Shown: in pieces, positions 1,138 to 64,000 of the stretch
Position numbering within the stretch: position 1 is the stretch's first letter
Layout of the letters: each line of letters opens with the position of its first letter
From: Polyangium mundeleinium
GTDB lineage: Bacteria > Myxococcota_A > Polyangia > Polyangiales > Polyangiaceae
DNA: 64,000 nucleotides
Direction of reading: 5' to 3'
Assembly: GCF_028369105.1 (NCBI RefSeq)
Contig: NZ_JAQNDO010000001.1
Span: forward strand, 2,035,711 to 2,099,710
Program-made: the position numbers and the translations under genes
Notes under the pieces: generated by a model
Database searches by the model: none
What the model was told of the DNA's origin: nothing
The model's input: only the letters and a program-made list of their open reading frames with translations

Positions 1138-2127
1138 ATGGATGGGCTCTCGTTGATTCTGGTCGCCGTGGTCTCCGCGCTCGCGCTCGTGATCGGGGTG
1201 CTCTTGCGGTCGCGGGGGGCGCTCGCGCGGGAGCTCGGGGCCGCGCGGGAGGAAGCGCGGGCGCTGTCGAAGGCCGCCGCCGAGGCGAAGAAGGCGTTGC
1301 CGGAAGCGGAAGCGGCGGCGGAAGCGGAAGCGGAAGCGGCGGCGGAAGCGGAAGCGGAAGCGGCGGAGGCGGCGGCGGCGGCGGAAGCGGCGGCGGCGGC
1401 GGAAGCACGAGCGGACAGGTTCGAGCGCGAGCTTCAGGAGGCTCGCGCGAGTGCCGAGAAGGCGTCTGACGAGTTACGGGAGGCTCGCGCGAGCGCCGCG
1501 AAGGCGTCTGACGAGTTACGGGAGGCTCGCGCGAGCGCCGCGAAGGCGTCTGAGGAGGTCCGGGAGGCTCGCGCGAGCGCCGCGAAGGCGTCTGAGGAGG
1601 TCCGGGAGGCTCGCGCGAGCGCCGCGAAGGCGTCTGGCGAGGTCCGGGAGGCTCGCGCGAGTGCCGAGAAGGCGTCTGGCGAGTTACGGGAGGCGCAGAA
1701 GAGGTGCGAAGAGCTTGAACGGCAGCTCGCGGAGGCCCGCGACCGGACCGACGGCCGGGCGGGGGACCTCTCCGCGGCGAGTCGCCGCATTGAGGAGCTC
1801 GGCCGCGCGCTCCGGCAAGCCGAGCAGGACGCCGAGACCCTCGCGACGCAGAAGGACGCGTTCGCCGCGGAGGTGCGCGCGCTGCGGGACGAGCTGGAGC
1901 GGCGGAAGAAGGCGGCGGAGCAGGCGGCCGCGGCGGCAGCGGCGGCCGAGGGGAAGCCGCTGTCCGCGGCGCCGTCGCGAAGGCCGGGGAAGCAGGCGCC
2001 ACCGCCGGAGCCGGTGACGGCGTTCTTTTGTTTGATCTGCGGGGAAGGGAGCGCGGGGACGAAGCCGCATCGGTGCCTCGTGGAAGAGGCGGAGCTGAAG
2101 AAGAAGGCGGCGGCGGGGAAGCGGTAG
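1138..2127 (+). CDS. membrane-anchored coiled-coil protein with 6 x 14-aa tandem repeats and a C-terminal CxxC...HxC zinc-ribbon-like motif
   Basis: N-terminal TM helix (LSLILVAVVSALALVIGVLL), Ala/Glu-rich coiled coil, (EARASAxKASxExR)x6, C-terminal FFCLICGEGSAGTKPHRC. GC3-rich codons. Confidence 0.65.
   Translation: MDGLSLILVAVVSALALVIGVLLRSRGALARELGAAREEARALSKAAAEAKKALPEAEAAAEAEAEAAAEAEAEAAEAAAAAEAAAAAEARADRFERELQEARASAEKASDELREARASAAKASDELREARASAAKASEEVREARASAAKASEEVREARASAAKASGEVREARASAEKASGELREAQKRCEELERQLAEARDRTDGRAGDLSAASRRIEELGRALRQAEQDAETLATQKDAFAAEVRALRDELERRKKAAEQAAAAAAAAEGKPLSAAPSRRPGKQAPPPEPVTAFFCLICGEGSAGTKPHRCLVEEAELKKKAAAGKR
1438..1689 (+). repeat. 42-bp in-frame tandem repeat x6 inside the coiled-coil gene
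   Basis: gaggctcgcgcgagYgccgMgaaggcgtctgRMgagKtMcgg repeated head-to-tail; encodes EARASA(E/A)KAS(D/E/G)E(L/V)R. Confidence 0.85.
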
Positions 2128-5997: not shown

Positions 5998-11949
<5,952 letters not shown>

Positions 11950-12344: not shown

Positions 12345-14282
12345 ATGTGGATGAGAAACATCATGAACACGAGATGGACAGGGCTCTTCACGTCGATCCT
12401 CACGGGTGTGCTCGGCGCCGGCTCGATGGGCTGCGAGCTCGTGGCAAACGTGGATCGAAGCCAGATCGACCAGAATCCACCCGGCTCGGAGGTCGTCTGC
12501 GGGGACGGGACCCTCGCCACGAGCGAAGCCTGCGACGATGGCAACACGGCGGCCGGTGACGGCTGTTCGGGCACGTGCGTGGTCGAGGACGGGTTCGCGT
12601 GCACCGGGACGCCGAGCGCGTGCGCCGACGTGGACGAGTGCGCGGCGGGTACGGACGACTGCGATGAAAACGCGACCTGCACGAACGCGGAGGGCTCGTT
12701 CACCTGCGCGTGCAAGGCGGGGTTCACGGGCGACGGCGCGACGTGCACGAACGTGGACGAGTGCACGGATGGCACGGCCAACTGCGGCGCAAACGCGACG
12801 TGCGCGGATACGCCCGGCTCGTTCACGTGCACCTGCGACACCGGGTACACCGGCGACGGCGTGACGTGTACGAACGCCGACGAGTGTGCCGATGGCACGA
12901 ACAACTGTGACGCGAACGCGACGTGCACGGATACGGTCGGCTCGTTCGTCTGCGCGTGCAACGCGGGATTCTCGGGCGACGGCGTGACGTGCACGAACGA
13001 TGACGAGTGCATGCTCGGCATCGACAACTGCGACGCAAACGCGACGTGCATGGATACGCCCGGCTCGTTCGCCTGCGTCTGCAACGTGGGCTACATGGGC
13101 GACGGGCTTTCGTGCACGAACGCCGACGAGTGCATGCTCGGGATGGATAACTGCGACGCGAACGCGACGTGCACGGACACGGTCGGCTCGTTCGTCTGCG
13201 CGTGCAACGCGGGGTTCTCGGGCGACGGCGTGACGTGCACGAACGATGACGAGTGCATGCTCGGCATCGACAACTGCGGCGCGAACGCGACGTGCATGGA
13301 CACGCCCGGCTCGTTCGCCTGCGCCTGCAACACGGGATATGCGGGCGACGGCGTGACGTGCACGAACGTCGACGAGTGCATGCTCGGGACGGACAACTGC
13401 AGCGCGGACGCGACGTGCACGGACACGGTCGGCTCGTTCGTCTGCGCGTGCAACGCGGGGTTCTCGGGCGACGGCGTGACGTGCACGAACGACGACGAGT
13501 GCGCGCTCGGCATCGACGACTGCAGCGCGAACGCGACGTGCACGGATACGCCCGGCTCGTTTACCTGCGCCTGCAACGCGGGGTATGAAGGCGACGGCGT
13601 GACCTGCACGCTGCTGCCGGCGAGCTGCAAGGCGATCAAAGCCGCGACGCCCGCCGCGACCGACGGCGACTATGTCATCGATCCGGACGGCACCGGCCCC
13701 ACGCCTTCGTTTACCGTGCGTTGCGACATGACCACGGCGGGCGGCGGCTTCACGCTCGTCTTCAACGACGGCCCCTCGTTCGACCCGAGCCTCGTCGGCG
13801 CGGGCGCGGAGACCGGGTACACGACGAACTACGTGAACAGCGCGTACGCGACGGTGCCGATCACGGCCGACGTGCTGCTCGACGCCTCCGACACGGCGAT
13901 CAGCGCGAACGATCAGGAAGTGCGGACCCTCATCGCGGGGCTCCCGGCGGCGACGCTCGGTCAAACGATGCGTGAGCTCTTCGCCGCGGGCGGGCCGTTT
14001 TATTTCGACGCGGAGGACAACGCCAACGTGACGAACACGTTCGCCGGCGGCGTCACCTGCGGGACGCTCGCGAAGTGGGACGACTACCGGAGCATTCTCT
14101 GCGGCACGTCGGTGCTCGTGGCGCGTGATCCGTCGGGCCCGTCCTGCCCCGGAACGACGTTCGCGTTTGGCATCGATACGAGTTACAGCACCGCGCTCGA
14201 CAACTGCGCCGGCTGGCCGCAAGCGCCGAACGAGAGCGGGACGAACTACTTCCCGGACAACGTCCGCGTCTGGGTGCGCTGA
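12345..14282 (+). CDS. secreted protein: Myxococcus Cys-rich repeat (TIGR02232-like) + 8 calcium-binding EGF-like domains + C-terminal fibrinogen-related domain
   Basis: Signal/lipobox ...GVLGAGSMGC; CGDGTLATSEACDDGNTAAGDGCSGTC; 8 x (D.DEC..G.DNC..NA.C.DT.GSF.C.C..GF.GDG.TC); FTVRCDMTTAGGGFTLVF matches the fibrinogen C-terminal signature (vyCDM...GGGWTV). Confidence 0.85.
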   Translation: MWMRNIMNTRWTGLFTSILTGVLGAGSMGCELVANVDRSQIDQNPPGSEVVCGDGTLATSEACDDGNTAAGDGCSGTCVVEDGFACTGTPSACADVDECAAGTDDCDENATCTNAEGSFTCACKAGFTGDGATCTNVDECTDGTANCGANATCADTPGSFTCTCDTGYTGDGVTCTNADECADGTNNCDANATCTDTVGSFVCACNAGFSGDGVTCTNDDECMLGIDNCDANATCMDTPGSFACVCNVGYMGDGLSCTNADECMLGMDNCDANATCTDTVGSFVCACNAGFSGDGVTCTNDDECMLGIDNCGANATCMDTPGSFACACNTGYAGDGVTCTNVDECMLGTDNCSADATCTDTVGSFVCACNAGFSGDGVTCTNDDECALGIDDCSANATCTDTPGSFTCACNAGYEGDGVTCTLLPASCKAIKAATPAATDGDYVIDPDGTGPTPSFTVRCDMTTAGGGFTLVFNDGPSFDPSLVGAGAETGYTTNYVNSAYATVPITADVLLDASDTAISANDQEVRTLIAGLPAATLGQTMRELFAAGGPFYFDAEDNANVTNTFAGGVTCGTLAKWDDYRSILCGTSVLVARDPSGPSCPGTTFAFGIDTSYSTALDNCAGWPQAPNESGTNYFPDNVRVWVR

Positions 14283-51889: not shown

Positions 51890-54800
51890 TCAAGGGGCAA
51901 TGCCCCGGGTCGGGTCAAGGGCGGAAGCCCTTGTGGGGTGAAGGGGCAACGCCCCTTCGCTCTCGGTCGAGAGCGGCAGCTCGACGCAGAAGGTCGAGCC
52001 CCGGCCGATCTCGCTCGACACACGAATTCGGCCGCCGTGCGCCTCGACGATGGTGCGCGTGATGTAGAGGCCGAGCCCGAGCCCCCCGTAATGCTGCGAC
52101 GAGACGCCGCGTCGAAATCGTTCGAAGAGCTGCGCCTGCACCTCGGCCGGGATCCCGATCCCGCGGTCCGTCACCGAGAGCCGTGCGACCCGATCTTCTC
52201 CGGTGATGGTGATGTCGATCGGCTGGCGTTCCCCGAACTTGATCGCGTTGGTGAGGAGGTTGGTCACGACCTGCTCCAGGCGGTGCGGGTCCCACCGGCC
52301 GATGACCGGCTGCTCCGCGCGCACGGCAATCGCGCTGCCTGACCGCGCGATCTGATCGCCGAGGTGGGCGACGACCTCGTCGACGAGCGCGCGCAGCTCG
52401 ACGGGCGCTGGGTACAGCTCGAGCCTCCCCGCCTGGATCCGGGAAACGTCGAGGAGCATATCGATGAGGTCGGCGAGGCGCTTGACCTGGCGGTCAGAGA
52501 GGGCGACCGCGGATCGCACGCGCTCGACGTCCATGCCCCGCGCGAGCCTTTGCCCCAGCGATTGAATGGCGAGCTGCAGGCTGGTGAGCGGGGTGCGGAG
52601 CTCGTGCGAGGCGATCGAAAGGAACTCGTCCCGTAGCTGCACGGCCTCCTCCGCTGCCGTGCGCGCGCGCCGCTCGTCCAGGAGGAGCTGATCGCGCTGC
52701 TGCTCGGCGCGCACGCGCGCGGTGATGTCGCGGAAGCTCCAGACCCGCCCGACCACGCGCCCGCCGAGGCGCTGGGGCTGCGAATAACGCTCGAAGATGC
52801 GCCCGTCCGCGAACGGGATGACATCGAAGCTGGACTTCTCGGGCGAGGCATAGAGAGCGCGGATCCTTTGCAGGAACGTCTCGGGATCGAGGAGCTGGTC
52901 GCAGACGAACGTACGGAACGTGTCGTCCGACCCGGTGGAGAGGATCTCGTCCGGGATGCGCCACATCGCCGCGAACCTGTGATTCTGACGCACGACGCGC
53001 TGCTCGTCGTCGACGACGAGGATGCCGTCCGCCGTCGATTCGAGCGTGGCCTCGAGGAGCGAGTAGGAATGGCGGAGCACCTCCTCGGCGCGCCGTCGCT
53101 CCGCGTTCTCCTGCTGCAAATCCGCATAGAGGCGCGCATTCTCGATGGAGTTGGCCGCCTGGGCCGAGAGATGCCGGATCACCTCGACGCGATCGGGGGT
53201 GAAAGCAGAGCGGGTGAGGTCGTTGTCGAGATAGATCACGCCGGCGAGGCGGCCCTTGTAGACGAGGGGCGCGGCGAGCGAGGAGCACGGCGCACCGCCG
53301 GCGAAGCAGGGATCGCGCCCGAACGGCCCGTCGATCGCGAGGTCGTCGAGCAGGACGGTCTCGCGCGTCCGCGCCACGTACGTGACGACGCTGGCCGGCA
53401 GGTCCTTGCGGTCCTCGAGGGGCGCCGCGCCAAGCACGTGGACGGCCGCCTCGCCGATGCGGTGCTCGGCCTCGACGACGAGCCGTCCGTCACGCAGCAG
53501 CAGCAGGACGCCGCGCCGCGCGCCGGCATTCTCGACCAGGATGCGCATGAGCGCGTCGAGCAGGCGCTCGAGGACGATCTCGCCCGAGATGGCCTGGGAG
53601 GCCTTGAGCACCGAGCCGAGGTCGAGCGCGGTGCTGGCGGGCGCAGCGGCCTCCGGGCCCATCGCGCCGCGAAGGATCTCGCTGGGGACGAGGTCGGGGT
53701 ACGCGCGTTCGAGGCGCCGCATCGCCTCGGTCGCGCCCCAGCGGCCGTACGCCCGGTGCGCCTTGGTCAGGTAGGCGCAGGCGACGGTGGTCTTGCCGAG
53801 AGCGCGGAAGGACAGGCCGGCGAGCTCGTTGGCGAGCGCCTCGTCGTGGAGGTAGCCGCCGCGCTGCGCGAGGGCGATCGCCTCGTCGTAGCGCTCCCAC
53901 GCGGCGTGCGCGTCGCCGCGGACGCGCGCGAGCTCGGCGTCGAGCAGGGCGCTGCGGTGCGCCAGGTTCTCCGGGCAGAGGTCCGCCCAGCGCGAGAGTT
54001 TTTTAGCGAAGATCTCCGCGCGGGCGAGGAAGAGCACGCGCTCGTCGGGGGAGACCACGTCCGCCGCCTGCGTGAGCGCGACGCCGGCGTAGACATGGAA
54101 CGCAGCGGCGCCCTGCCAGGACACCACGGTCGGGATCTCGATGTTCAGCGAGAGCGCGGTGCGCGCCGCTTCCTCGAACGCGCCCTGGAAGACGCCGAGG
54201 AGCACGACGTAGAACTGCGCGAGGGAAGTCGAGACCAGGTTGTCCATCCGGCGGGACTCCTCGATCACCTCGTCGATGTCGACCCATGCGCCCTTGAGCT
54301 TGGCCGGGCGCGCGGTCTCGACCGAGAGCTGGTGCGCCAACTGTCCGATCGCGTCGACTATCCAGGTGATGGTGTCGAACTCGTCGAGCTTGCATATCGG
54401 CTGGTAACTCTGCGCCTCGGCGAGGAGGTCGGAGAGCGGCAGGCCGCGCAGGAGGCTGTTCGTGATGGCGTTGACTGTGTTGTAGAACGCCCAGATGTAC
54501 TGGCCCGTCTCGAGCCCGGCGTGCATCCCCGCGAGCAGCGACTTCTGGCAGGCGGGGTAGCCCTCTCTCCAGTGCTGTACGTGGCCGCCCCACAAGTGCC
54601 GGAGCATCGCCTCGGATTTCTTGTCCGGGTGGCGCTCCGAAAGGTCGATGGCAGCGCGGCCAAAGCGGTAGCCGAGCTCGACGTCGCCGCGGGCGCAGAG
54701 GGACGTCCCGAAGGTGATGCAGCCGTAGATCGCGTGCTTCGACAGGCCGTGGCGCAGCGTGTTCTCGAGGATCTTCGCGACCATGATGGTGAGGTTGTTG

Positions 54801-57502
54801 GGGCTCAAGAACCAGCCGGGAGCAAAGAGCTCCTGGAGCACGTCCTGCATGGCGCGGATCTCCGGGTCCACGAGCGGCGGCAGGCCTGGGAGCGCATCGA
54901 GCGTCTTTTCCCGGACGAGATCCATCGTCGCCTGGACTTGGGCGTTGACCATGGATTCGTCGGGGAACGGGGGCAGGTCGAGCCCGAACGGGCGCAGGGC
55001 CGCGAGTCCCTCCGCGAGCGCGGCGGGCAGGTCGTTCTTGAGCACCTGCACGTTCATCTTGAGCCGCAGCACCTCGGTGCGATCGAGCCGGCTCGCGGTC
55101 CGCTCCAGGCTGTCGGAGAGGACCGCGAGGGCGTCGTCGTGCCGGCCGCAGAGCGAGAGCATGAGGCCGGTCTTCTTCGCGTACTCGAGGCGGAGCGGGT
55201 ACTGCGACGTCCAGGCATCCTCGGGAAGGCGCAGGAGGCCGAGCTTCAGGTAGCGCAGGGCGGCGCCGAAGGCGGCCGCGTCCTCGGCGCGGCAGGCGGC
55301 CTCGAGGCTCATGCGGGCGATGCGCAGGCGCTCCGCGGGGTCCGACACGAGGTCGCCCGCGTTGTTCAGGTGGCCGACGACGTCGAAGAGGTTCTGGTTC
55401 TCGGAGAGGTCCAGCTTGCCCGCGAGCAGCCGGCCGATCCGGAGGTGGAAGGCGGGCCGGTCCGCCTCCGGGATCATCGCATAGGCGCCCTCCTGGACCT
55501 TGTCATGAGCGAAGCGGTAGCCCTCGCGGCGGGCGATCACGAGCCCCTCGCTGACGGCGGGATCGAGGCGACCGTACGCGTCTTCCGGCGAGCACTCGCT
55601 CACCGTGGCGAGCACGTCGAGCTCGAACCGGTTGCCGATCGCCGCGGCGAGCTTCAGGGCCGCCTGGGTCGTCGCGGGTAGCCGCGCGATGGTGCGCACC
55701 ATGAGGTCGACGACGTTGTCCGTGTACGCGAGCGCATCGATCTTGGCGAGGTCCCAGCGCCATCCCGACCCGGCTGCGAACGTGAGCACGCCGTGGTCGT
55801 GCAGCGACCGGACGAACTCCTTGACGAAGAACGGGTTGCCGCCGGTCTTCTTCAGCACCGCATCGGCGAACGGCCCGCAGTCGTCGCGCTTGAGGCTGTC
55901 CGAGAGCATCTCGAGCAGGTGCGGGCGCGCGAGCGGGGCGAGGACGATGTCGCGCACGACGAGCCCGGCGTGCTCGAGCTCCTCGATGGCCAGGACGAAC
56001 GGGTGCCCGGGCGAGACCTCGTTGTCGCGGTAAGCGCCGCAGAAGAAGAGCGCCTCGAGCGAGTCGTCGGCGAGGAGCGCCCGGAGCAGCCCGAGGCTCG
56101 CGGGGTCGATCCACTGCAGATCGTCGAGGAACAGGACGAGCGGGTGCGCGTGCCGCGCGAACACCGAGACGAAGAGCAAGAAGCACCGGTTCAGGCGGTT
56201 CTGCGCCTCGACGGGCCCGAGCTCGGGGACGGGCGGCTGCGCGCCGAGCACGTGGGATAACGAGGGGATGACGTCGCAGATCACCTGCCCGTTCGGGCCG
56301 AGCACGTCGAGGAGCAACCGCCGCCACGCCTCGCTCCGCGCCTCGCTCTCGGTGAGGATCTGCCGCACGAGGCCGTCGAACGCCTGGATCACCGCGCTGT
56401 AGGGCGTGTCGCGGTTGTACTGGTCGTATTTGCCGCTCGTGAAATAGCCCTTCTGCCGCGCGAGCGGCTTCAGGATCTCGTGAACGAGCGAGGATTTGCC
56501 GATGCCCGAGTAGCCGGAGACGAGGACGATCTCGCGGCTCCCCGCGAGCGCGCGCTCGAACGCGGCGGTGAGCGCCTCGATGTCATGCTCGCGGCCGTAG
56601 AGCTTCTGGTGGATCCGGAAGAGGTCCTGACGATCGCGCTGGCCCACGACGAAGGGCTCGATCGTCCCCGTGCCGCGCAGGGCCTCACGGCAGCGCTCGA
56701 GGTCGGCGAGCAGGCCCTCGGCGCTCTGGTAGCGGTCCTCGGCGTTTTTCGCGAGCAGCTTGAGCACGACGTCGGAGACGGCCTCGGGGATCGTCGGATC
56801 GACGCGGGACGGCGGCGCGGGCGCGAGGGCGAGGTGCGCGTGGATGAGCTCCATCGGGTCCAGGACCTCGAAGGGGCGCTGACCCGTGAGCATCTGGTAA
56901 AGGATGACGCCGAGCGCATAAAGGTCGGTCCGGTAGTCGACGCCGCGGTTCATGCGGCCGGTCTGCTCGGGGGAGATGTAGGGCAGCACGTCGGCGATCA
57001 CCGCCGGCTCGTAGAGCCGCTCGTGCGCGCGGGTGATCTCGGCGTCGACGCCGAAGTTCTTGATCTTGACCGCGCCGTGCGCGCCGACGAGCACGTTTTG
57101 CGGGCGCAGGTCGCGGTGGACGAGCCCCGCCGCGTGCACCACGGCGAGGCCTTCGGCGAGCGCGGCCGCGAGATCGAGCGCATCGACGACGGGCATTCTG
57201 CGTGACGGACGCGCGGCGAGGATCCGCGCGAGATCGCGGCCCGGGAAGTCCTCGAGGACGACGATCAAGGAGCCCGCGAGCTCCTCGACGCCGCGCAGCG
57301 CGACGAGGCGGGGCGAGGCGATGCGCGCGATGCGCTCGTACTGGTGCTTGAAGCGCGCGACCTCGGCGCGCGTCGATCCTTCCGCGCGGAGGATTTTCAG
57401 CAAAACCGGGACGCCGTCGCCCTCGCGGTACGCGCGGTACAGGCTAAAATCGGCGCTTTCCTCGATCTTCTCCCGGAGCGCGTAGCCTCTCCCGACGACC
57501 AT
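51890..57502 (-). CDS. 1870-aa multidomain sensor: Ser/Thr-kinase-like domain (atypical motifs) - AAA/STAND NTPase - TPR - GAF - PAS - HisKA - HATPase_c
   Basis: HRDLRPQNVLV catalytic loop but NFG instead of DFG and a degenerate Gly loop; Walker A LVSGYSGIGKSSLV; FLSIASHELRTPL (H-box); ITITGEDRVARLSVTDRGIGIP...GGLGLGL (N/G1/G2 boxes). Confidence 0.9.
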   Translation of the reverse strand: MVVGRGYALREKIEESADFSLYRAYREGDGVPVLLKILRAEGSTRAEVARFKHQYERIARIASPRLVALRGVEELAGSLIVVLEDFPGRDLARILAARPSRRMPVVDALDLAAALAEGLAVVHAAGLVHRDLRPQNVLVGAHGAVKIKNFGVDAEITRAHERLYEPAVIADVLPYISPEQTGRMNRGVDYRTDLYALGVILYQMLTGQRPFEVLDPMELIHAHLALAPAPPSRVDPTIPEAVSDVVLKLLAKNAEDRYQSAEGLLADLERCREALRGTGTIEPFVVGQRDRQDLFRIHQKLYGREHDIEALTAAFERALAGSREIVLVSGYSGIGKSSLVHEILKPLARQKGYFTSGKYDQYNRDTPYSAVIQAFDGLVRQILTESEARSEAWRRLLLDVLGPNGQVICDVIPSLSHVLGAQPPVPELGPVEAQNRLNRCFLLFVSVFARHAHPLVLFLDDLQWIDPASLGLLRALLADDSLEALFFCGAYRDNEVSPGHPFVLAIEELEHAGLVVRDIVLAPLARPHLLEMLSDSLKRDDCGPFADAVLKKTGGNPFFVKEFVRSLHDHGVLTFAAGSGWRWDLAKIDALAYTDNVVDLMVRTIARLPATTQAALKLAAAIGNRFELDVLATVSECSPEDAYGRLDPAVSEGLVIARREGYRFAHDKVQEGAYAMIPEADRPAFHLRIGRLLAGKLDLSENQNLFDVVGHLNNAGDLVSDPAERLRIARMSLEAACRAEDAAAFGAALRYLKLGLLRLPEDAWTSQYPLRLEYAKKTGLMLSLCGRHDDALAVLSDSLERTASRLDRTEVLRLKMNVQVLKNDLPAALAEGLAALRPFGLDLPPFPDESMVNAQVQATMDLVREKTLDALPGLPPLVDPEIRAMQDVLQELFAPGWFLSPNNLTIMVAKILENTLRHGLSKHAIYGCITFGTSLCARGDVELGYRFGRAAIDLSERHPDKKSEAMLRHLWGGHVQHWREGYPACQKSLLAGMHAGLETGQYIWAFYNTVNAITNSLLRGLPLSDLLAEAQSYQPICKLDEFDTITWIVDAIGQLAHQLSVETARPAKLKGAWVDIDEVIEESRRMDNLVSTSLAQFYVVLLGVFQGAFEEAARTALSLNIEIPTVVSWQGAAAFHVYAGVALTQAADVVSPDERVLFLARAEIFAKKLSRWADLCPENLAHRSALLDAELARVRGDAHAAWERYDEAIALAQRGGYLHDEALANELAGLSFRALGKTTVACAYLTKAHRAYGRWGATEAMRRLERAYPDLVPSEILRGAMGPEAAAPASTALDLGSVLKASQAISGEIVLERLLDALMRILVENAGARRGVLLLLRDGRLVVEAEHRIGEAAVHVLGAAPLEDRKDLPASVVTYVARTRETVLLDDLAIDGPFGRDPCFAGGAPCSSLAAPLVYKGRLAGVIYLDNDLTRSAFTPDRVEVIRHLSAQAANSIENARLYADLQQENAERRRAEEVLRHSYSLLEATLESTADGILVVDDEQRVVRQNHRFAAMWRIPDEILSTGSDDTFRTFVCDQLLDPETFLQRIRALYASPEKSSFDVIPFADGRIFERYSQPQRLGGRVVGRVWSFRDITARVRAEQQRDQLLLDERRARTAAEEAVQLRDEFLSIASHELRTPLTSLQLAIQSLGQRLARGMDVERVRSAVALSDRQVKRLADLIDMLLDVSRIQAGRLELYPAPVELRALVDEVVAHLGDQIARSGSAIAVRAEQPVIGRWDPHRLEQVVTNLLTNAIKFGERQPIDITITGEDRVARLSVTDRGIGIPAEVQAQLFERFRRGVSSQHYGGLGLGLYITRTIVEAHGGRIRVSSEIGRGSTFCVELPLSTESEGALPLHPTRASALDPTRGIAP

Positions 57503-57654: not shown

Positions 57655-58099
57655 GCGGAGGCGGGCGCGGGAGCGGGAGGGGAAGCCCGCCCCGGTCGTC
57701 CTGCCAGGTGCTTATAGCGTGACGTCGGAGAGTCGCGACATCGATGCTTACAAGGGGAAGCGAACCGCTCTCCCGCTCGATCTCGGCGAGATATGAGCAA
57801 CTCGAAGCCGGCGATATCGATTTCGGCGGCGTACATGTCTCCTTGTGGCGACGGGGGGCGGATGGTGACCGTGATGGTGCGGGGAGCGCGTCCGTCCGCA
57901 GGGGTCCATTGCAGCTTCTGGATTTGCATGGGCGAGGTCATTGCTTGGCGCAGTCCCGGGGACACCGAAGGTCCGCGTGTGGCGCGTCCGGGGCTCGATG
58001 CAAATGGGCACGTTCGAGGCGCGATGGGCCTCGCGCCCCGAAAGCCCTCATCTCTCCTTGCCACCCAGCGGCTCCTGAGGAACCCTGCGAGGCTCGCAG

Positions 58100-59398
58100 A
58101 TGAAGATCACAACGGTCATGAACGGCGTCCGCTGCTCGAGCCGGCGAGCCTCGCATCCACAGCGGTTCGCGGCGCTCGCATGTGCTGCCTTGGTCGTCAG
58201 TTGCACGCAAGCACCGCCGCAAGCACCGCCGCAAGCACCGCCGCAGGCGCGACAGGAGGTGGTGTCTCCCTCCCCCGCCACCGCTGCGGCACCGCCGCCC
58301 CCTGTCGCCGAGGTTCAGGTCGATGGTCCGCGCATTCGCGTCGCCTTGAAGGAAATTCGCGTCGACGATGCGGCCGTACCTTGGGACCCCGCGCTCCTTC
58401 GAGACCGGCTCCAGAAGATCGATCCCCTCTTCGAGGCGCTGCGCGAGCTTCGCAAGCCCGGAATCGACCGGCTTGCTTCCGGCGAATGCGTCTTCGAGGT
58501 CGAGCCCGACGTCCCCTTCACGGCCGCGGCCAGCGCCATCATGACGAGCGCGTTTGCAGGCTGCCCAGTGGCATGGGTGTCGACCGGCTCGGGGTGGCTG
58601 AAGTTGCGGACGCCCCTTCCGCTGCCTCCCGGCACGCCGCTCCCGGCGCCCGAAAGCAGAGTTCCCTCGCGCCGGCAGAGCGCGCTGCACATCGGCCCGA
58701 CGGAGCTCGAGCTCACGGTCTTCGCGGTCGTGCCGCCCGCCTCCGGCGCGGGCCGCGAGCAGCTCGAAAAAGTCGTGCATCGGACGGTCGAGCGTGGGAC
58801 GTCGGCGGCCCGCGAGCTCGGCAGCGCGCTCGTCGGGGCTTGCCAGCAGGCTCCGCGTCCCTGTCCAGCAGGCCTGTGGTTGACCGCGGATGCGGACGTG
58901 CTTTTCAGCGAGGCCGCGCGCGCTCTCGGGGCGATCGTCGACGTGCAGAAGGCAGCTCCCGCCGCTGGTGGTGGGGCAGCGGAGGTCTTGGTGAGCTTTC
59001 GGTCCCGTGGCACCGGGCCTATCGATCAGCTCCCTCCTGCCATTCGGCTCGGAAGCCTCCAGGTATCCGGCCGTCTCCCACCGGGGGAGATCCAGCGCAT
59101 CGCTCGGAGCAACTTCGGCACATTCCGGGCCTGCTACGAGGAGGGGTTGAAGCGGAATCCCAACCTGGAAGGGCGCATCGGTGTGCGTTTCGTGATCGGA
59201 AAGGACGGTCGCGTGACGAAAGCCGGTGCGGTCCCGGACCCAACCGCGGAGTTCGCGACCGAGAGATCGGAGCCGCTGCTGCCAGACGAAAAGGTCGTCG
59301 CGTGCGTCGTCGGGGCGTTCGAGAAGCTCGTTTTTCCTGCGCCGGAGGGGGGGATCGTGACCGTGGTGTATCCCATCCAATTCTCTCCGGGAAGCTGA
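58100..59398 (+). CDS. lipoprotein with (APPQ)n linker and a C-terminal ~100-aa domain that I believe resembles the AgmX/PglI-type (Myxococcales) C-terminal domain, recalled from memory
   Basis: Lipobox LVVSC; C-terminus ...FGTFRACYEEGL...GRIGVRFVIGKDGRV...VVACVVGAFEKLVFPAPEGGIVTVVYPIQFSP. The alternative start is MNGVRC at 58118. Confidence 0.7.
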   Translation: MKITTVMNGVRCSSRRASHPQRFAALACAALVVSCTQAPPQAPPQAPPQARQEVVSPSPATAAAPPPPVAEVQVDGPRIRVALKEIRVDDAAVPWDPALLRDRLQKIDPLFEALRELRKPGIDRLASGECVFEVEPDVPFTAAASAIMTSAFAGCPVAWVSTGSGWLKLRTPLPLPPGTPLPAPESRVPSRRQSALHIGPTELELTVFAVVPPASGAGREQLEKVVHRTVERGTSAARELGSALVGACQQAPRPCPAGLWLTADADVLFSEAARALGAIVDVQKAAPAAGGGAAEVLVSFRSRGTGPIDQLPPAIRLGSLQVSGRLPPGEIQRIARSNFGTFRACYEEGLKRNPNLEGRIGVRFVIGKDGRVTKAGAVPDPTAEFATERSEPLLPDEKVVACVVGAFEKLVFPAPEGGIVTVVYPIQFSPGS

Positions 59399-59451
59399 GC
59401 GGGCAAAGGCCCGTCGAACGCGTGCTTCCCGCCCAGGGCGAGCGTGATCGT

Positions 59452-60195
59452 TCAGGGGCCGGAGCTGGGGAGGGCGAGCGCGTCTTCGAGAGCCCGGCAC
59501 GCATGCAGGTTCCAGACGAACCACATCATCGAGCCGCCCGTTTGGACCACGTCCCACACGGCGACGGATTTGCCGAGCACCTCGTTGTGCTCGCCGCCGA
59601 GGCAGGTCTTTTCCTTGGGTTTGGGCACATCATCGAGCTTCGTGCGGTCCGCGCCCCAGGCTTCGAAGGTCGTGGCGTCGGCGCAGCGGTGTTTCTCCCG
59701 GCACAGGGCGATGGCCCGCTCCGTGGCCTGGTAGGTCCATGCCTCGGTGCTGTAGAACGGCACGCACTCGATGATGCGTTCGAGCTTCTGCGCGATTTCG
59801 TCGGGCGAGTGTTTCCCGGCGAGGACCTGCGCGACACGCGTGCGGACCTCGCGATCAAACTGCGCAGGGGTCTTCGCCTCGGCTCTGCGGGACCACGTCG
59901 TGTCCGTGTCGCCGTCATAGTGGAAGACGACGAAGCCGCCGGGCTCGGCGATTTTCCGGGCGATGTAATGCCAGAGGTCTCGCTTTTTACGCTCGTCTTT
60001 GGCCTTCGTGCTCCGCCATTGATTCGCGATCAGGACGGGCCGGATGTCGTCATCGACGGGGACGAGCTCGACGCGGGGCGTGTACCCATTCTCCTCGAAC
60101 CGGTTCAGCAACTTCTGAACAATGGCCCGGAGGCCACGCCATGTAGGCTCGCTCGAATCCTCCGAGAGCAGCGCGATGGAGAAGCGCGGCCTCAC
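59452..60195 (-). CDS. Toprim-like (DUF4276/DUF4435-like) partner protein, GTG start overlapping the ATPase stop (GTGA)
   Basis: VRPRFSIALLSEDSSE (strand-1 Glu) ... FVVFHYDGDTD (DxD); 247 aa; the upstream 138 aa of the listed ORF are Pro/Arg junk antisense to nothing credible. Confidence 0.6.
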   Translation of the reverse strand: MRPRFSIALLSEDSSEPTWRGLRAIVQKLLNRFEENGYTPRVELVPVDDDIRPVLIANQWRSTKAKDERKKRDLWHYIARKIAEPGGFVVFHYDGDTDTTWSRRAEAKTPAQFDREVRTRVAQVLAGKHSPDEIAQKLERIIECVPFYSTEAWTYQATERAIALCREKHRCADATTFEAWGADRTKLDDVPKPKEKTCLGGEHNEVLGKSVAVWDVVQTGGSMMWFVWNLHACRALEDALALPSSGP

Positions 60196-61424
60196 CAGAG
60201 GCCCTCGGTGCGGAGCACCTCGCTGACGTGCTGGATGCCGGTCTGGTAGGCGACGTAGAAGCGCTCGGCTTCCTCCTCGTTGAAATTGCGCCAGACCATC
60301 TGCTCGCGCCCGTCGGGGCCGAGGGCCGTGGTGCACCGGATGAAGGTGGTGCGGACGGCTTCGGCGGATTCGATGGGGATGTGGTCGAGGAGGAAAGGGT
60401 GTTGCGTCGCGAGGAAGCTCTGGCGGTCTTGCATGCGGTCGAAGCAGAGCTCGATCCATTCGTGGTGCAGGCCGTTGAGGAGTTCGTCGATGACGAGCGG
60501 GAGATCCTGCCGGACGGCGAGGTACCACAGGAAGCAGAAGAGCCGCTTCTGACCGAAGCTCAGGAGCTGGTGGGAAACCTGAGAGCCGTCTGCACGGCGG
60601 AACAGGCAATCGAAGCCCTGATAGATCGTCCCAGCCTGCGATTGCTGGAGCATTCGCAGGTATAGCTCGGCGGAAGCGAAGCCGAGCGCGGTTGGAATCC
60701 GCGAAAGCACGCCGAGCTCATCGAAGGGAATGCACAGCGGTTCAGGCGATTTGGGCTTGTGTGATGCAATGTTCACGAAGCCTTTGGGTAGCCATTCGCC
60801 GAATTCAATCCGGGGCCCGTGCACTTTGAAGGAAGCTTGCGTGATGACATCCAAAGTAGCGACAGCCTCATCGAGCCGGTCAACACGTCCCCAGACGTTG
60901 AATGTTTCAAAAATGACATCCCAAACTTGGGAGGGGAGGCTGTCGATTATGTCGGGAATGCTCAACATGGCGACGAGCACCCGCATACCCGCCCGGCCCC
61001 CCGCCCTCCCCTCGAAAGTCTTCGCGGACCCCTTCGCAGGCGTCCAGGTTACTCGCGTGCCGGTGACCTCGGCGCATCCGATCGTAGTGCCCGCGTCACG
61101 AACAGTCATCGTCCAGGCATCGTCGAACTCTGCCTCCTCGCCGAATAGCGGTGCGAGGCCCCTGGGTTTGGCTGGAGTACGAATCGCCCGCATCTCGAGC
61201 TGTGTATCGCCCTCCTCCAGCCACCACGTCAGATCGAACCCCGCATCCTCCTTCGCGAATCCCGACAGGTCATCATTCGTGACCGCGGCGATCACATCGA
61301 GCAGCGTCGACTTGCCCGTCGCGTTTTTCCCGAGCAGGACGTTGAACGTGGGGCCGAAGCGGAGATCCGTCCCGGGCTTGACGTTGCGGAATCGGTCGAT
61401 CCGGAGCCGCGTGAGCCGCACCAT
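60192..61424 (-). CDS. ABC-type AAA_21-like ATPase (RecF/OLD/AriA-like)
   Basis: MVRLTRLRIDRFRNV...VLLGKNATGKSTLLDVI (Walker A); LSFGQKRL (signature-like); LPLVIDELLNGLH (Walker B/H). ATG 61424; the listed ORF continues 5' into the repeat array. Confidence 0.8.
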   Translation of the reverse strand: MVRLTRLRIDRFRNVKPGTDLRFGPTFNVLLGKNATGKSTLLDVIAAVTNDDLSGFAKEDAGFDLTWWLEEGDTQLEMRAIRTPAKPRGLAPLFGEEAEFDDAWTMTVRDAGTTIGCAEVTGTRVTWTPAKGSAKTFEGRAGGRAGMRVLVAMLSIPDIIDSLPSQVWDVIFETFNVWGRVDRLDEAVATLDVITQASFKVHGPRIEFGEWLPKGFVNIASHKPKSPEPLCIPFDELGVLSRIPTALGFASAELYLRMLQQSQAGTIYQGFDCLFRRADGSQVSHQLLSFGQKRLFCFLWYLAVRQDLPLVIDELLNGLHHEWIELCFDRMQDRQSFLATQHPFLLDHIPIESAEAVRTTFIRCTTALGPDGREQMVWRNFNEEEAERFYVAYQTGIQHVSEVLRTEGLW

Positions 61425-61544
61425 GCGGGTCTTCTTACCGTCGCCCACCCCGGATGCATAGGGCCAAAGCCGGCCGCCCCGTCGCCCACGCAAGCGCACC
61501 CCTCTGCCCCATGAGCCCACCTCCTTGCTCGCAGAAGGGAGCAC

Positions 61545-61925
61545 GCCGTCGTCCTCCGGGGAGCATGACGACGTCCTCCCGGAGCATGACGACATCCGCG
61601 GGGAGCACGCCGTCGTCCTCCGGGGAGCATGACGACGTCCGCGGGGAGCATGACGACGTCCTCCCGGAGCATGACGACATCCGCGGGGAGCACGCCGTCG
61701 TCCTCCGGGGAGCATGACGACGTCCGCGGGGAGCACGCCGTCGTCCGCCGGGGAGCATGACGACGTCCGCGGGGAGCACGCCGTCGTCCTCCGGGAGCAT
61801 GAAGACGTCCGCCGAGAGCATGAAGACGTCCGCCGGGAGCATGAAGACGTCCGCCGGGAGCACGCCGTCGTCCTCCGGGAGCATGACGACGCGCGCCGGG
61901 AGCACGCCATCGTCCGCCGGGAGCG
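61545..61925. repeat. 21-bp tandem repeat array, about 18-20 units (ggagcaYgMcgWcgtcctccS), immediately 5' of the ATPase gene
   Basis: Read directly. The units keep a 7-codon period, giving open frames on both strands (REHEDVR..., DDGVLPADVVMLPE..., SRRTSSC...). Confidence 0.9.
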
Positions 61926-61935
61926 CGACGCGACG

Positions 61936-62388
61936 CTAGAACCGCCCCATCACCACGAGCCCCTGCATCGCCCCGCTCACGACCGGCACCACGGTGACCT
62001 TCGCTGGCGCCGGGCTCGGGTGCGCTTCGGGATTGATCCACCCGAGCACCAATCCAAGAAAGACCCCCGCCGCGCCCACGCCGAGCGCCGTGGTCGCGAC
62101 CCGCCCGTCGGTCGTCGCTTTCTCGCGGAGCGCATACCCCTCGGCGTCACATTTGTCCGGATCCGACGTGAGGCAATGCTGCTTCGTCGCCGCATTCGCC
62201 TCGTCCGAGCGAGACGCATACACTGCGCCGGCCACGATCGCAGAGGCGCCCGTGGTCATGACGAGCGCCGCCGCAATGCGGGGGCCCGTCCAGAAGGGGG
62301 CCGGCGGAGGCGGCGGCGCCGCGGGGGGTTCGGCCCAGGCGATCGAGGGGAGCACGAGGGCGGCCAGGAAAAAGGGCAGGGAGCGCAT
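61936..62388 (-). CDS. small secreted membrane protein carrying the same C-terminal anchor module as the two PEGA proteins
   Basis: MRSLPFFLAALVLPSIAWA signal; TM - C(x8)C - TM - ends VVMGRF; stop of the upstream gene 1 nt away. Confidence 0.6.
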   Translation of the reverse strand: MRSLPFFLAALVLPSIAWAEPPAAPPPPPAPFWTGPRIAAALVMTTGASAIVAGAVYASRSDEANAATKQHCLTSDPDKCDAEGYALREKATTDGRVATTALGVGAAGVFLGLVLGWINPEAHPSPAPAKVTVVPVVSGAMQGLVVMGRF

Positions 62389-62389
62389 G

Positions 62390-64000
62390 TCAGAGGTCGA
62401 AGAGCTCGTCGTCCTGGCCCGCGTCCTCCTCGGCGAGGAGCGCCTCCGCGTGCTTGGCGACCGATTCGAAGAATTTTTGCTCGGGTGATTTCGAGGGCAA
62501 TCGGGCCGCGGCCTCGCGGGCCTGCGAGCGCAGGAGCGTCTCGCTGCGATCCGCCCGGGCGCCCGAGCGAGGCCGCGCCTGGCCCGTGACGACCGAGAAG
62601 AGCGCGCTCCGGACACGCTCGAAGCAGCCCTCGCCGGTCGCGTGCGCCCGCCGGAGGAGCGTGGCGACGAGCTCGAGGTGCGCGAAGAGGAAGGTGGGCG
62701 GCGCCTCTTCGAGGAGCGCGGAGATCGCTTCGAGCTCGCTCTCGCCGCCGTCCTGCACCCACTCGGAGAGGACTTCGACCGTCGGCAAGGCGAACGAGCG
62801 CGAGGCGTCGTGGAAGAGGCGCGCGGCGTGGAAACGGACCCAGCCAATGCGGGCCCGCGCGAGGTGGCGGACGCGGCGCAGGAGCGAGAGCCACTCCGGC
62901 GAGCGCGTGAGGCCGGCGAGGATGGCCGAGAGGCCCTCCGGCGGGAGCGGCTCGTACTCCTCCGCCCCTGCGACGGCCCCGGACGCGGCGCGCGCGATGC
63001 GCTCGATGAAGAGGCCCGCGACGTCCTCCGGCAGGCGTTTGCCCGCGTGGTGGAGGAATCGCATCGTGGAGTGGCCGTCGAGGCTACGCGCCGCGCCGAG
63101 GCGCGTGAGGAAGAGGATGATTTCCTCCTCGGAGAGCGCGCCTTCGGAGAAGAGGCCGCCCGCGTCGAGGGCGCCGAAGAGGGCCTCGGCGACCTCGGGG
63201 CCCTCGGAGAGGTCGACGCCGACGGCGAGCTCGACCGCGTCGCGCGGGGAGGATTTGGCGAGGGTGCGGAGCGCCCCGAGCGCCGCGCGGCGGACGAAGC
63301 CGTCGCGGTGTCCGAGGAGGTGGCGGAGCGCTTCGCGATCGCCGGGCAGGGGCTTTTCGACCCAGCGATGGAAGACCTGCGCGAGCGAGGCGCAGAGCGT
63401 GGGGTTGCCGCCCGTGACGATGGTGTCGACGAGGGCCTCGGCGCGATCGGGCGCGGCCTCGCGGAGTGCATGCAACAAGGAGGCGACGTGCGGGCCGAGC
63501 GGGCTCTCGGGCGCGCCCATGACGGCCTCGCAGATCGCCGCGGCCGCCGCCGGATGCATGCGGGAGAGGACGTGCAGGAGGAGGCGCGGGGAGCCGGACT
63601 TGCCCGCGAGCGCGAGGGCTTCGAGCGCCGCGCCGAGCCATTCGGCCGTCTGCGCAGGCGGGTGGCCCTCGGCGAGCATCTCGTCGACGACCGCGCGACA
63701 CGCGTCGGCCGAGCGTCGCTCGACGCCCCCGCGATCGACCTCGCCCGAGCCCGGGATCTCGCTCGCCGGCAGGTCGATCATGCCGCGCTGCGCGGGTGAG
63801 CGTTGCGTGAGGGCCTCGTAGAGCCTGCGCTCGGCCGAGGTCGGGACGGTGCCAAGGGCCGTCTCGGCCGCCGCGCGCACCTCGGAGGAGCTCGCGCGCC
63901 GGGCCGCGCGCCGGAGCGCGTCGGCGACCGCAAAATGGACGAGCGGATCGGTGGAGGTGTTCGCGGCGGCGCCGAGCATCGTGAGGATGTCGAGCCGCTC
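62390..64000 (-). CDS. HEAT/PBS-lyase-like repeat protein (N-terminus beyond window end)
   Basis: Repeated (alpha-alpha) units with ...ALGAL..L..P motifs; the in-frame sequence upstream of the listed Met continues to the window edge without a stop. Confidence 0.65.
   Translation of the reverse strand, partial: ERLDILTMLGAAANTSTDPLVHFAVADALRRAARRASSSEVRAAAETALGTVPTSAERRLYEALTQRSPAQRGMIDLPASEIPGSGEVDRGGVERRSADACRAVVDEMLAEGHPPAQTAEWLGAALEALALAGKSGSPRLLLHVLSRMHPAAAAAICEAVMGAPESPLGPHVASLLHALREAAPDRAEALVDTIVTGGNPTLCASLAQVFHRWVEKPLPGDREALRHLLGHRDGFVRRAALGALRTLAKSSPRDAVELAVGVDLSEGPEVAEALFGALDAGGLFSEGALSEEEIILFLTRLGAARSLDGHSTMRFLHHAGKRLPEDVAGLFIERIARAASGAVAGAEEYEPLPPEGLSAILAGLTRSPEWLSLLRRVRHLARARIGWVRFHAARLFHDASRSFALPTVEVLSEWVQDGGESELEAISALLEEAPPTFLFAHLELVATLLRRAHATGEGCFERVRSALFSVVTGQARPRSGARADRSETLLRSQAREAAARLPSKSPEQKFFESVAKHAEALLAEEDAGQDDELFDL

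Follow-up and report, generated by a model that had tools for sequence, protein, structure and literature searches.

An uncharacterised ABC ATPase and Toprim-like gene pair in Polyangium mundeleinium that resembles OLD, PARIS and HEC-01, beside a lineage-specific minisatellite

Polyangium mundeleinium carries two overlapping minus-strand genes, an ABC-type ATPase and a Toprim-like partner, which form an uncharacterised cassette. The cassette resembles the OLD, PARIS and HEC-01 anti-phage systems without belonging to any of them. On balance, ATPase and partner appear to make up an autonomous accessory cassette of which the adjoining tandem repeat array is not a component. The features of the locus, given as positions in the window (the whole 64,000-nucleotide stretch of P. 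mundeleinium DNA that was analysed), are as follows.

59452..60195, minus strand: partner protein, 247 aa, GTG start (WP_271916599.1)
60192..60195, minus strand: GTGA start/stop overlap of ATPase and partner, 4 nt
60192..61424, minus strand: ABC-type ATPase, 410 aa (WP_271916600.1, NCBI name 'AAA family ATPase')
61425..61536, minus strand: non-repetitive leader between the array and the ATPase ATG, 112 nt
61537..61935, minus strand: minisatellite of 18 clean units and 1 degenerate unit of 21/22 nt, unit types GGACGTCGTCATGCTCC and GGACGACGGCGTGCTCC
61936..62388, minus strand: upstream gene, 150 aa, predicted secreted or membrane protein, outside the cassette and bounding it

A preliminary description of this DNA had reported the two minus-strand genes with their GTGA overlap. 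Both are present at these coordinates, and the NCBI annotation has the same two proteins (WP_271916600.1 and WP_271916599.1). The motifs quoted there were also all found (GKNATGKST, SFGQKRL and VIDELLNGLH in the ATPase; LLSEDSSE and HYDGDTD in the partner). The overlap is consistent with translational coupling of the two genes. It is also 4 nt long in four homologous loci (L002, L005, L006 and L010) and 1 nt long in another (L009).

The ATPase is matched by Pfam AAA_21 (E 8.1e-13). Its predicted structure is a high-confidence head of the Rad50/SMC/RecF/AriA type, nearest to the Rad50, SMC and RecF heads and to the defence ATPases AriA, PtuA, retron Ec83 and Eco8 OLD. Its motifs are listed below, with residue invariance read from the family alignment A3.

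61305..61331, minus strand: Walker A / P-loop GKNATGKST, residues 32-40 (G32, N34, G37, K38 and T40 invariant)
60540..60563, minus strand: ABC signature-like LSFGQKRL, residues 288-295 (S289, G291, Q292 and R294 invariant)
60483..60500, minus strand: Walker B PLVIDE, residues 309-314 (D313 and E314 invariant)

The AlphaFold2 (AF2) model of the partner (pLDDT 92.7) has an N-terminal Toprim-like alpha/beta domain, with strands at residues 5-11, 42-45, 87-92 and 141-144, and a C-terminal helical domain. A Toprim-like Glu and DxD had been proposed for this protein, and the model bears this out: an invariant Glu follows strand 1 and a DxD follows strand 3.

60157..60162, minus strand: Glu12-Asp13 at the end of strand 1, the Toprim Glu position, invariant
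59902..59922, minus strand: HYDGDTD after strand 3, with H92, D94 and D96/98 at the Toprim DxD position
59743..59745, minus strand: Glu151 (YSxEAW) after strand 4, invariant

Among 52 partner sequences (25–68% identity), E12/D13 and H92-x-D94-G-D are invariant; H92, D94 and D98 fall on invariant family columns, as do E12 and D13. Glu151 is a candidate additional metal ligand, a role we infer. The HYDGDTD site also holds a 6-nt microduplication (GACACG) unique to P. mundeleinium.

Sequence searches place the partner in no described family. Nothing usable for family placement came from Pfam, NCBIfam, PADLOC or the PDB (phmmer and profile), and Foldseek against the PDB gave no significant match. 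TAL-effector matches had no stretch above threshold and are treated as spurious. UvrD, HNH and RloB in Pfam and PADLOC did not match the partner. UniRef names it 'DUF4276 family protein', a label that Pfam DUF4276 (PF14103) does not reproduce: the model has no match to the partner itself and only faint ones among its relatives (1 of 27 at E 0.16; 2 of 52, best 0.0046). The partner family comprises about 635 clusters at 50% identity and has no model in the Pfam, NCBIfam and PADLOC libraries searched.

PARIS consists of the ABC ATPase AriA and the DUF4435 Toprim nuclease AriB. Like the cassette, it has two genes with the ATPase first and a small, separate Toprim-type effector; it is activated by a phage trigger such as Ocr, and released AriB cleaves tRNA (PMC11464382). 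The preliminary description had assigned the pair to an AriA/AriB or split-OLD arrangement. An ABC ATPase coupled to a Toprim-like partner holds, but membership in PARIS fails because the partner lacks DUF4435: PF14491 does not match the partner at E <= 1, 27 relatives at E <= 10 or 52 relatives at E <= 1. The partner is also shorter (247 aa), with its own helical domain, and AriB is absent among the best 60 structural matches listed for it. AriA is the best PDB sequence match of the ATPase, but the similarity is confined to the P-loop (residues 21-57). The PADLOC AriA model (PDLC02980) matches at 3.6e-15, which we treat as generic because its residues and its 304-position model range coincide with those of the AAA_21 match. 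The AriAB model matches at 3e-5, at the N-terminus only.

The OLD family (P2 Old, Burkholderia class 2, GajA of Gabija and the retron Eco8 OLD) likewise joins an ABC ATPase to a Toprim nuclease. The partner has the Toprim fold of this family, with Glu after strand 1, DxD after strand 3 and a helical domain, and its best structural match among those listed is the Toprim and helical C-terminal region of Burkholderia class 2 OLD (6nk8). In contrast to OLD proteins, ATPase and Toprim are here on separate polypeptides, and the pair is split over two ORFs in all homologous loci. Toprim_OLD (PF20469) has no sequence match to the partner or to the sets of 27 and 52 relatives, there is no UvrD/GajB or reverse-transcriptase partner, and the ATPase is nearer to Rad50/SMC/RecF heads than to OLD ATPases. 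GajA and PtuA models give N-terminal P-loop matches only, and the cognate proteins of Gabija, Septu and AbiL (GajB UvrD helicase, PtuB HNH and AbiLii RloB) are not matched here.

HEC-01, a PADLOC candidate system (ABC ATPase HEC-01A and TOPRIM protein HEC-01B), has the same two-gene architecture, and no other models in the defence libraries touch the partner family. However, these matches are short and fall below threshold. HEC-01B covers 27 residues of the partner (128-154, E 0.01) and matches 3 of 52 relatives faintly (best 1.5e-4), and HEC-01A covers about 66 N-terminal residues of the ATPase (best stretch 3-68, E 6.8e-8). Both HEC-01B and DUF4276 are described as Toprim. HEC-01 was found embedded in Hma systems; no Hma genes lie near the cassette.

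A small Toprim-superfamily protein with an AAA_21-type ATPase is also found in DUF4276/Mad4 with Mad3 (MADS) and in RloB/AbiLii with AbiLi. The PADLOC mad3 and AbiLi models match the ATPase, AbiLi partially. Here, in contrast, there is no methyltransferase or other MADS gene, the neighbours are unrelated, and NCBIfam antiphage_MADS3 scores far under its cut-off (33.9 versus 420 bits); neither DUF4276 nor RloB is matched by the partner.

The pairing of the two genes is obligate, and their distribution is patchy and mobile. The ATPase lies directly upstream of the partner in all eight other loci with intact partner genes, and the pairing is still seen at 33% identity, in Pyxidicoccus. Each lineage has different flanking genes. 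A conserved housekeeping context, named beforehand as evidence against the defence reading, was not found, as the context outside Polyangium is variable. The homologous neighbourhoods consist mostly of housekeeping genes and are not recognisable defence islands. In P. fumosum, the segment equivalent to 59949-61937 is replaced and the pair is lost; the two replacing genes have no family match, so 'defence-island turnover' in this species is unsupported. A TacA-like antitoxin gene adjoins one homologous locus. Phage and plasmid collections contained no homologue of either protein. The ATPase homologues at L001, L003 and L008 are broken into two ORFs, which could reflect decay or assembly error.

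The array is a real, lineage-specific (Polyangium) noncoding minisatellite in an intergenic spacer, with a copy number that varies between species. TRF places it at 61537-61924 (period 21, 18.3 copies, scores 432-551). The units follow the pattern GG[AC]GGAYGWCKKCRTGC, with higher-order periods of 42 and 85, and the unit core occurs 18 times in the array against 0.42 expected by chance in the whole window. The preliminary description had a perfect-period 21-bp array immediately 5' of the ATPase, in frame on both strands. A tandem array does lie 5' of the ATPase, but neither directly adjacent nor in perfect period. The 112-nt leader intervenes (its final ~76 nt are conserved in P. sorediatum), unit-to-unit identity is 78–89%, and spacings between the 18 clean units are 21 nt in 13 cases out of 17 and 22 nt in the other 4. 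The four 22-nt units shift the frame on either strand, so no single reading frame is kept through the array; one is kept only in the eight units nearest the upstream gene. We rejected the array as coding sequence because the 22-nt units break every frame and the ORFs differ between species. NCBI annotates none of these ORFs, and their products are absent from the protein collection.

An orthologous array lies in the same place in P. sorediatum (L005, 5422-5925). Copy number differs between the two species, with 18-19 units in P. mundeleinium and 23-24 in P. sorediatum. Homologous cassettes in six other lineages (L001-L003, L006 and L008-L010) have no array, and the array was therefore rejected as a cassette part. 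P. fumosum and a metagenome contig carry related arrays at unrelated loci; a genome-wide DNA pattern scan gave 0 matches for the strict pattern and matches in P. fumosum only for the relaxed one.

It is conceivable, if doubtful, that the array is a decayed or once-translated C-terminal heptad-repeat extension of the upstream 150-aa gene rather than part of the ATPase operon. This gene is conserved in P. sorediatum and P. fumosum (its protein had no match in a family search), and its TAG stop lies directly against the array. Across this single TAG, the frame of the gene continues through the first 8 units in P. mundeleinium and the first 11 in P. sorediatum, which read (M/V)LP(A/E)D(V/D)(V/G) and have a G or C in each third position. 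On scaffold 2 of P. fumosum, a related array is fused in frame, with no stop, to a duplicated 3' fragment of another gene. However, the TAG is conserved in both species, the frame is broken further on by 22-nt units, the chance of being in frame is one in three each time, and the array at L013 has no recognisable coding sequence ahead of it.

For the gene pair, we lean towards an autonomous, ATPase-controlled nuclease cassette of the OLD/PARIS/HEC-01 type, probably for defence. By analogy with those systems, we infer complex formation, nuclease activity, a trigger and a defence role. A Rad50-like ABC ATPase that lacks a long coiled coil would be co-translated with a small nuclease-like protein, whose Toprim metal-binding centre would comprise Glu12, Asp94-x-Asp96 and probably Glu151. 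The ATPase would most likely bind the partner, restrain or license the nuclease and do the sensing. Once triggered, for instance by phage infection, the nuclease would cut DNA or RNA, and the infection would be stopped or the cell killed. Against a defence role, we know of no defence phenotype for the ATPase–partner family. HEC-01, the nearest candidate, gave no protection in E. coli assays. The mostly housekeeping neighbourhoods, the lack of homologues in the phage and plasmid collections and the split ATPases at L001, L003 and L008 also count against it.

It is unlikely that the pair is instead a module for repair or maintenance of cellular DNA, similar to RecF/RecR or Rad50/Mre11. In favour of this, the ATPase is matched best in structure by Rad50, SMC and RecF heads, neighbourhoods are often housekeeping, and the Toprim-domain protein RecR works with the ABC ATPase RecF. 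NCBIfam RecF (TIGR00611) does match the N-terminal 44 residues of the ATPase (E 1.1e-7), but its 31.4 bits do not reach the equivalog cut-off of 172. The partner retains the full set of catalytic acids typical of Toprim nucleases, and the patchy distribution, context that differs per lineage and loss in P. fumosum fit a core repair function poorly.

We give a similarly small chance to a toxin–antitoxin-like addiction module without an anti-phage role, in which the nuclease would be the toxin and the ATPase its antidote. The tight coupling by start/stop overlap, solitary insertion in varied contexts and the TacA-like neighbour of one homologue all suit such a module, and AAA_21 is called 'putative AbiEii toxin, Type IV TA system' in Pfam. 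Plasmid or phage copies, in contrast, were not found in the collections searched. Such a module overlaps mechanistically with abortive-infection defence, so the two are hard to tell apart by sequence alone.

A regulatory role of the array is not favoured. The preliminary description had suggested a contingency locus or leader peptide, for which we found no positive support: the tract lies outside the conserved start of the coding sequence, and the two species share no conserved array ORF. That the array sets cassette expression, as a contingency element or as a ribosome-loading leader of Shine–Dalgarno (SD) plus start-codon units, is highly improbable. Two species do share its position with differing unit numbers, and every unit has an SD-like hexamer 7 nt before ATG or GTG (GG[A/C]GGA-N7-[A/G]TG). 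In both species, the TAA that closes one array ORF lies 8 nt ahead of the ATPase ATG, and no terminator was found between array and ATPase; a scan of the gene strand near the array and leader for sigma-70-like promoters and terminators gave none of either. However, six other lineages lack the array at their cassettes, related arrays sit at unrelated loci, and the array ORFs are unconserved (156 aa versus 75 aa, with frames differing after unit 8). Units of 21 nt cannot switch frame, and they would leave promoter phasing unchanged, since 21 bp is two helical turns. Array RNA folds no better than shuffled sequence (z = -1.07), and, by inspection, unit variants differ mostly through non-synonymous changes when read in the best frame. 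An Rfam scan of the array gave nothing relevant.

The least likely reading, barely credible to us, makes the partner family and its dedicated ABC ATPase, which lacks a coiled coil, a new, separately evolved split OLD-like immune class whose expression in Polyangium is tuned by an expandable leader of tandem SD-plus-start-codon units, working as a copy-number rheostat or a ribosome trap.

The gene pair matters more than the repeat array, which is a record of a Polyangium minisatellite family that evolves fast, breaks assemblies and is located at gene ends. The pairing of an ABC ATPase with a Toprim nuclease is a recurring design in bacterial immunity, found in OLD, Gabija, PARIS and retron Eco8. 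The Pfam, NCBIfam and PADLOC libraries searched do not reveal the present family, although it is widespread among soil bacteria. Defence screens based on E. coli serve myxobacteria poorly; given the negative HEC-01 result in such a screen, a test in the native host is the informative one. The known repertoire of OLD-like systems would grow if the family were added to defence catalogues and tried in a myxobacterial host.

The cassette consists of an ABC ATPase gene and a partner gene that share the four bases GTGA. Our gene boundaries are the same as those in the NCBI annotation. G+C content is 0.57–0.65 in the cassette region, slightly below that of the flanks (0.70–0.75).

60192-61424, reverse strand: ATPase gene, ATG at 61424 to TGA at 60192, 410 aa
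59452-60195, reverse strand: partner gene, GTG at 60195 to 59452, 247 aa

The first gene encodes a Rad50/RecF-like ABC ATPase, of a kind common to many defence systems and with no nearer family, as judged from its library matches and invariant nucleotide-binding motifs. It matches Pfam AAA_21 at 8.1e-13 and, at its N-terminus, AAA_23, SMC_N and AAA_15. The top PADLOC model is ‘AriA’ (PDLC02980); we take this match as generic because its residues and 304-position range are identical to those of AAA_21. Other PADLOC defence ATPase models (mad3, AbiLi, HEC-01A, PtuA and GajA) match mainly the first ~50–70 residues, and NCBIfam scores for MAD3, RecF and PtuA are all far under cut-off. In an alignment of 46 homologues, the most distant at 31% identity, the invariant positions include Walker A, signature residues S289, G291, Q292 and R294, and Walker B residues D313 and E314.

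The partner is unrecognised by any library searched (Pfam, PADLOC, NCBIfam). It is a member of a well-defined family, with 51 close relatives by sequence search and 635 representative clusters by profile search (E ≤ 0.001). Among the 150 family matches listed, nearly all are 190–320 aa long and align across almost their full length. Residues E12, D13, H92, D94, D98, E151, W153 and S222 are invariant over 52 diverse members. The structural model (pLDDT 92.7) has strands at 5–11, 42–45, 87–92 and 141–144 with helices between them, and a helical C-terminal half. The invariant Glu-Asp sits just after strand 1, with H-x-D-G-D after strand 3, the positions at which Toprim domains have their Glu and DxD (PMC12065111). 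A Foldseek search with the model returned no significant match. Faint sequence links agree with a Toprim placement: HEC-01B matches 3 of the 52 members (best 1.5e-4) and DUF4276 matches 2 (best 0.0046). UniRef labels the partner ‘DUF4276 family’. We read it as a divergent Toprim-superfamily protein with its catalytic-type acid set intact, and infer nuclease activity. At the DxD motif, the gene carries a 6-nt microduplication (GACACG twice, 59902-59913), so that the protein reads DGDTDTTW where all relatives read DGDTTW.

ABC ATPase–Toprim associations have been described in OLD, Gabija, PARIS, Wadjet and HEC-01. By analogy, an ATPase-controlled Toprim nuclease is the most likely mechanism: the ATPase would be a sensor or regulator of the partner, and this effector would act in abortive infection or nucleic-acid restriction. 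The OLD/PARIS-like architecture proposed in the preliminary description is supported, in that an ATPase with invariant motifs is coupled to a Toprim-like partner. Its assignment to PARIS fails, as the partner lacks the defining AriB domain, DUF4435. Membership of OLD also fails, since the architecture is not fused and no Toprim_OLD model matches. The relationships to DUF4276 and to HEC-01, which gave no defence in E. coli, are sub-threshold. For these reasons we file the cassette as a new, unmodelled example of a known design, the ‘split OLD-like ATPase + Toprim pair’, with a putative, unproven defence role.

The cassette behaves as an accessory, horizontally moving unit, given its constant pairing, varying flanks and replacement in P. 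fumosum. At every locus compared that has an intact partner homologue (L002, L005, L006, L009 and L010), an ATPase gene of the family lies directly upstream, in most cases overlapping it by 4 nt. At L001 (4768-6004), L003 (4737-5982) and L008 (6582-8004) the ATPase is called as two shorter ORFs, which could reflect pseudogenisation or long-read metagenome indel errors. Both genes of a Pyxidicoccus pair (33% identity) are homologous to the cassette, and many ATPase and partner matches fall on contigs of equal size in both match lists. The flanks differ per locus: T6SS and TacA-like genes; an HTH gene with a methyltransferase; flagellar genes plus aconitase; aromatic amino-acid and ribosomal genes; pyrophosphatase with SUKH. 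Polyangium genomes are collinear at this locus, and P. sorediatum matches window 58051-64000 at 89–94% identity. P. fumosum retains the flanks (window 58052-59948 and 61938-64000) and has 1.7 kb (SSMQ01000003.1, L004 4311-6034; window 59949-61937) in place of the array, the ATPase gene and ~82 codons from the 5' end of the partner gene. The two genes of this segment (224 and 117 aa) have no family match. There, the partner remnant adjoins, with nothing between, a 125-bp duplicate derived from the upstream gene (window 62008-62132). No cassette copy was found in the plasmid and phage collections searched, and at the loci compared the cassette is not visibly embedded in defence islands.

The array 5' of the ATPase gene is genuine, and its turnover proceeds by block duplication. 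TRF reports periods of 21, 42 and 85 at 61537-61924. Anchored on a conserved core, it has 18 clean units and one degenerate unit beside the upstream gene's stop. Thirteen spacings are 21 nt and four are 22 nt, which corrects the earlier claims of a perfect period and of units in frame on both strands. The units are of two types (cores GGACGTCGTCATGCTCC and GGACGACGGCGTGCTCC), which alternate in higher-order blocks. P. sorediatum has an orthologous array of 23–24 units in the same spacer, with the same first five units and one four-unit block duplicated. All other homologous cassettes (L001-L003, L006, L008-L010) lack such an array. Related 21/22-nt arrays with unit GGCGGATGWCGGCATGCKCYC lie at two contig ends: the start of P. 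fumosum scaffold 2 (L007 51-700; 23–24 units) and a soil metagenome contig with no ATPase nearby (L013 6-238). The former is joined in frame to a duplicate (~93% identical) of the 3'-terminal ~130 nt of a 313-aa gene; that gene lies 1.5 kb away, and its C-terminal ADTLMPR resembles the repeat heptad.

The array is best read as a noncoding minisatellite, specific to the lineage and located in the spacer. Its first 8 units (61750-61938, reverse strand) continue the frame of the upstream 150-aa gene past a single TAG stop, as do the first 11 in P. sorediatum (L005 5408-5668). This reading runs ...MGRF, stop, RRVALPADDGVLPARVVMLPEDDGVLPADVFMLP..., with all third codon positions G or C, and the in-frame units resemble a C-terminal heptad-repeat extension, either former or potential. 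Every unit also has GG(A/C)GGA-N7-(A/G)TG on the gene strand, an SD-like hexamer and start codon. Both features are curious; a leader or uORF role is possible but unsupported. The array ORFs are not conserved between P. mundeleinium and P. sorediatum, RNA folding is unremarkable, Rfam gives nothing, and a scan of the gene strand in and beside the array detected neither promoter nor terminator. The proposed control of the module by the array is not supported. The preliminary description was largely right in observation and half right in interpretation.

Unrelated arrays lie just downstream of the partner gene at L003 (6737-6906, 43 nt x4) and L008 (8788-9034, 42 nt x6), both metagenome assemblies; at L003 the units include a hairpin, GGAAGG...CCTTCC, and are REP-like in appearance. 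Counting the Polyangium array, a minisatellite touches the cassette in 3 of 8 independent loci, which may be chance in GC-rich genomes. Other repeats and genes in the window are:

58100-59398, forward strand: convergent 432-aa predicted lipoprotein, AgmX/PglI (GltG-like) C-terminal domain (2e-19)
51890-57502, reverse strand: 1870-aa ORF, translation read by eye
1138-2127, forward strand: 329-aa protein gene, coding repeat at 1437-1694
7231-9861: long array, periods 147–165 nt
12633-13610: long array, period 123/246 nt

The lipoprotein gene is conserved beside the cassette locus in three Polyangium species, and its perfect 12-nt x3.3 repeat (58206-58245) codes for PPQA repeats. The 1870-aa ORF looks like a multidomain signalling protein with N-terminal protein kinase-like, P-loop and C-terminal histidine kinase-like regions. 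The 329-aa protein offers a contrast, a repeat that keeps its frame: its 42-nt x6 repeat LREARASAAKASDE has zero indels, and the gene also has GCGGAA hexamer tracts. The 123/246-nt consensus has Cys-rich codons in one frame.

The cassette is a candidate defence pair, unmodelled yet of conventional type, and alongside it lies an unexplained minisatellite.
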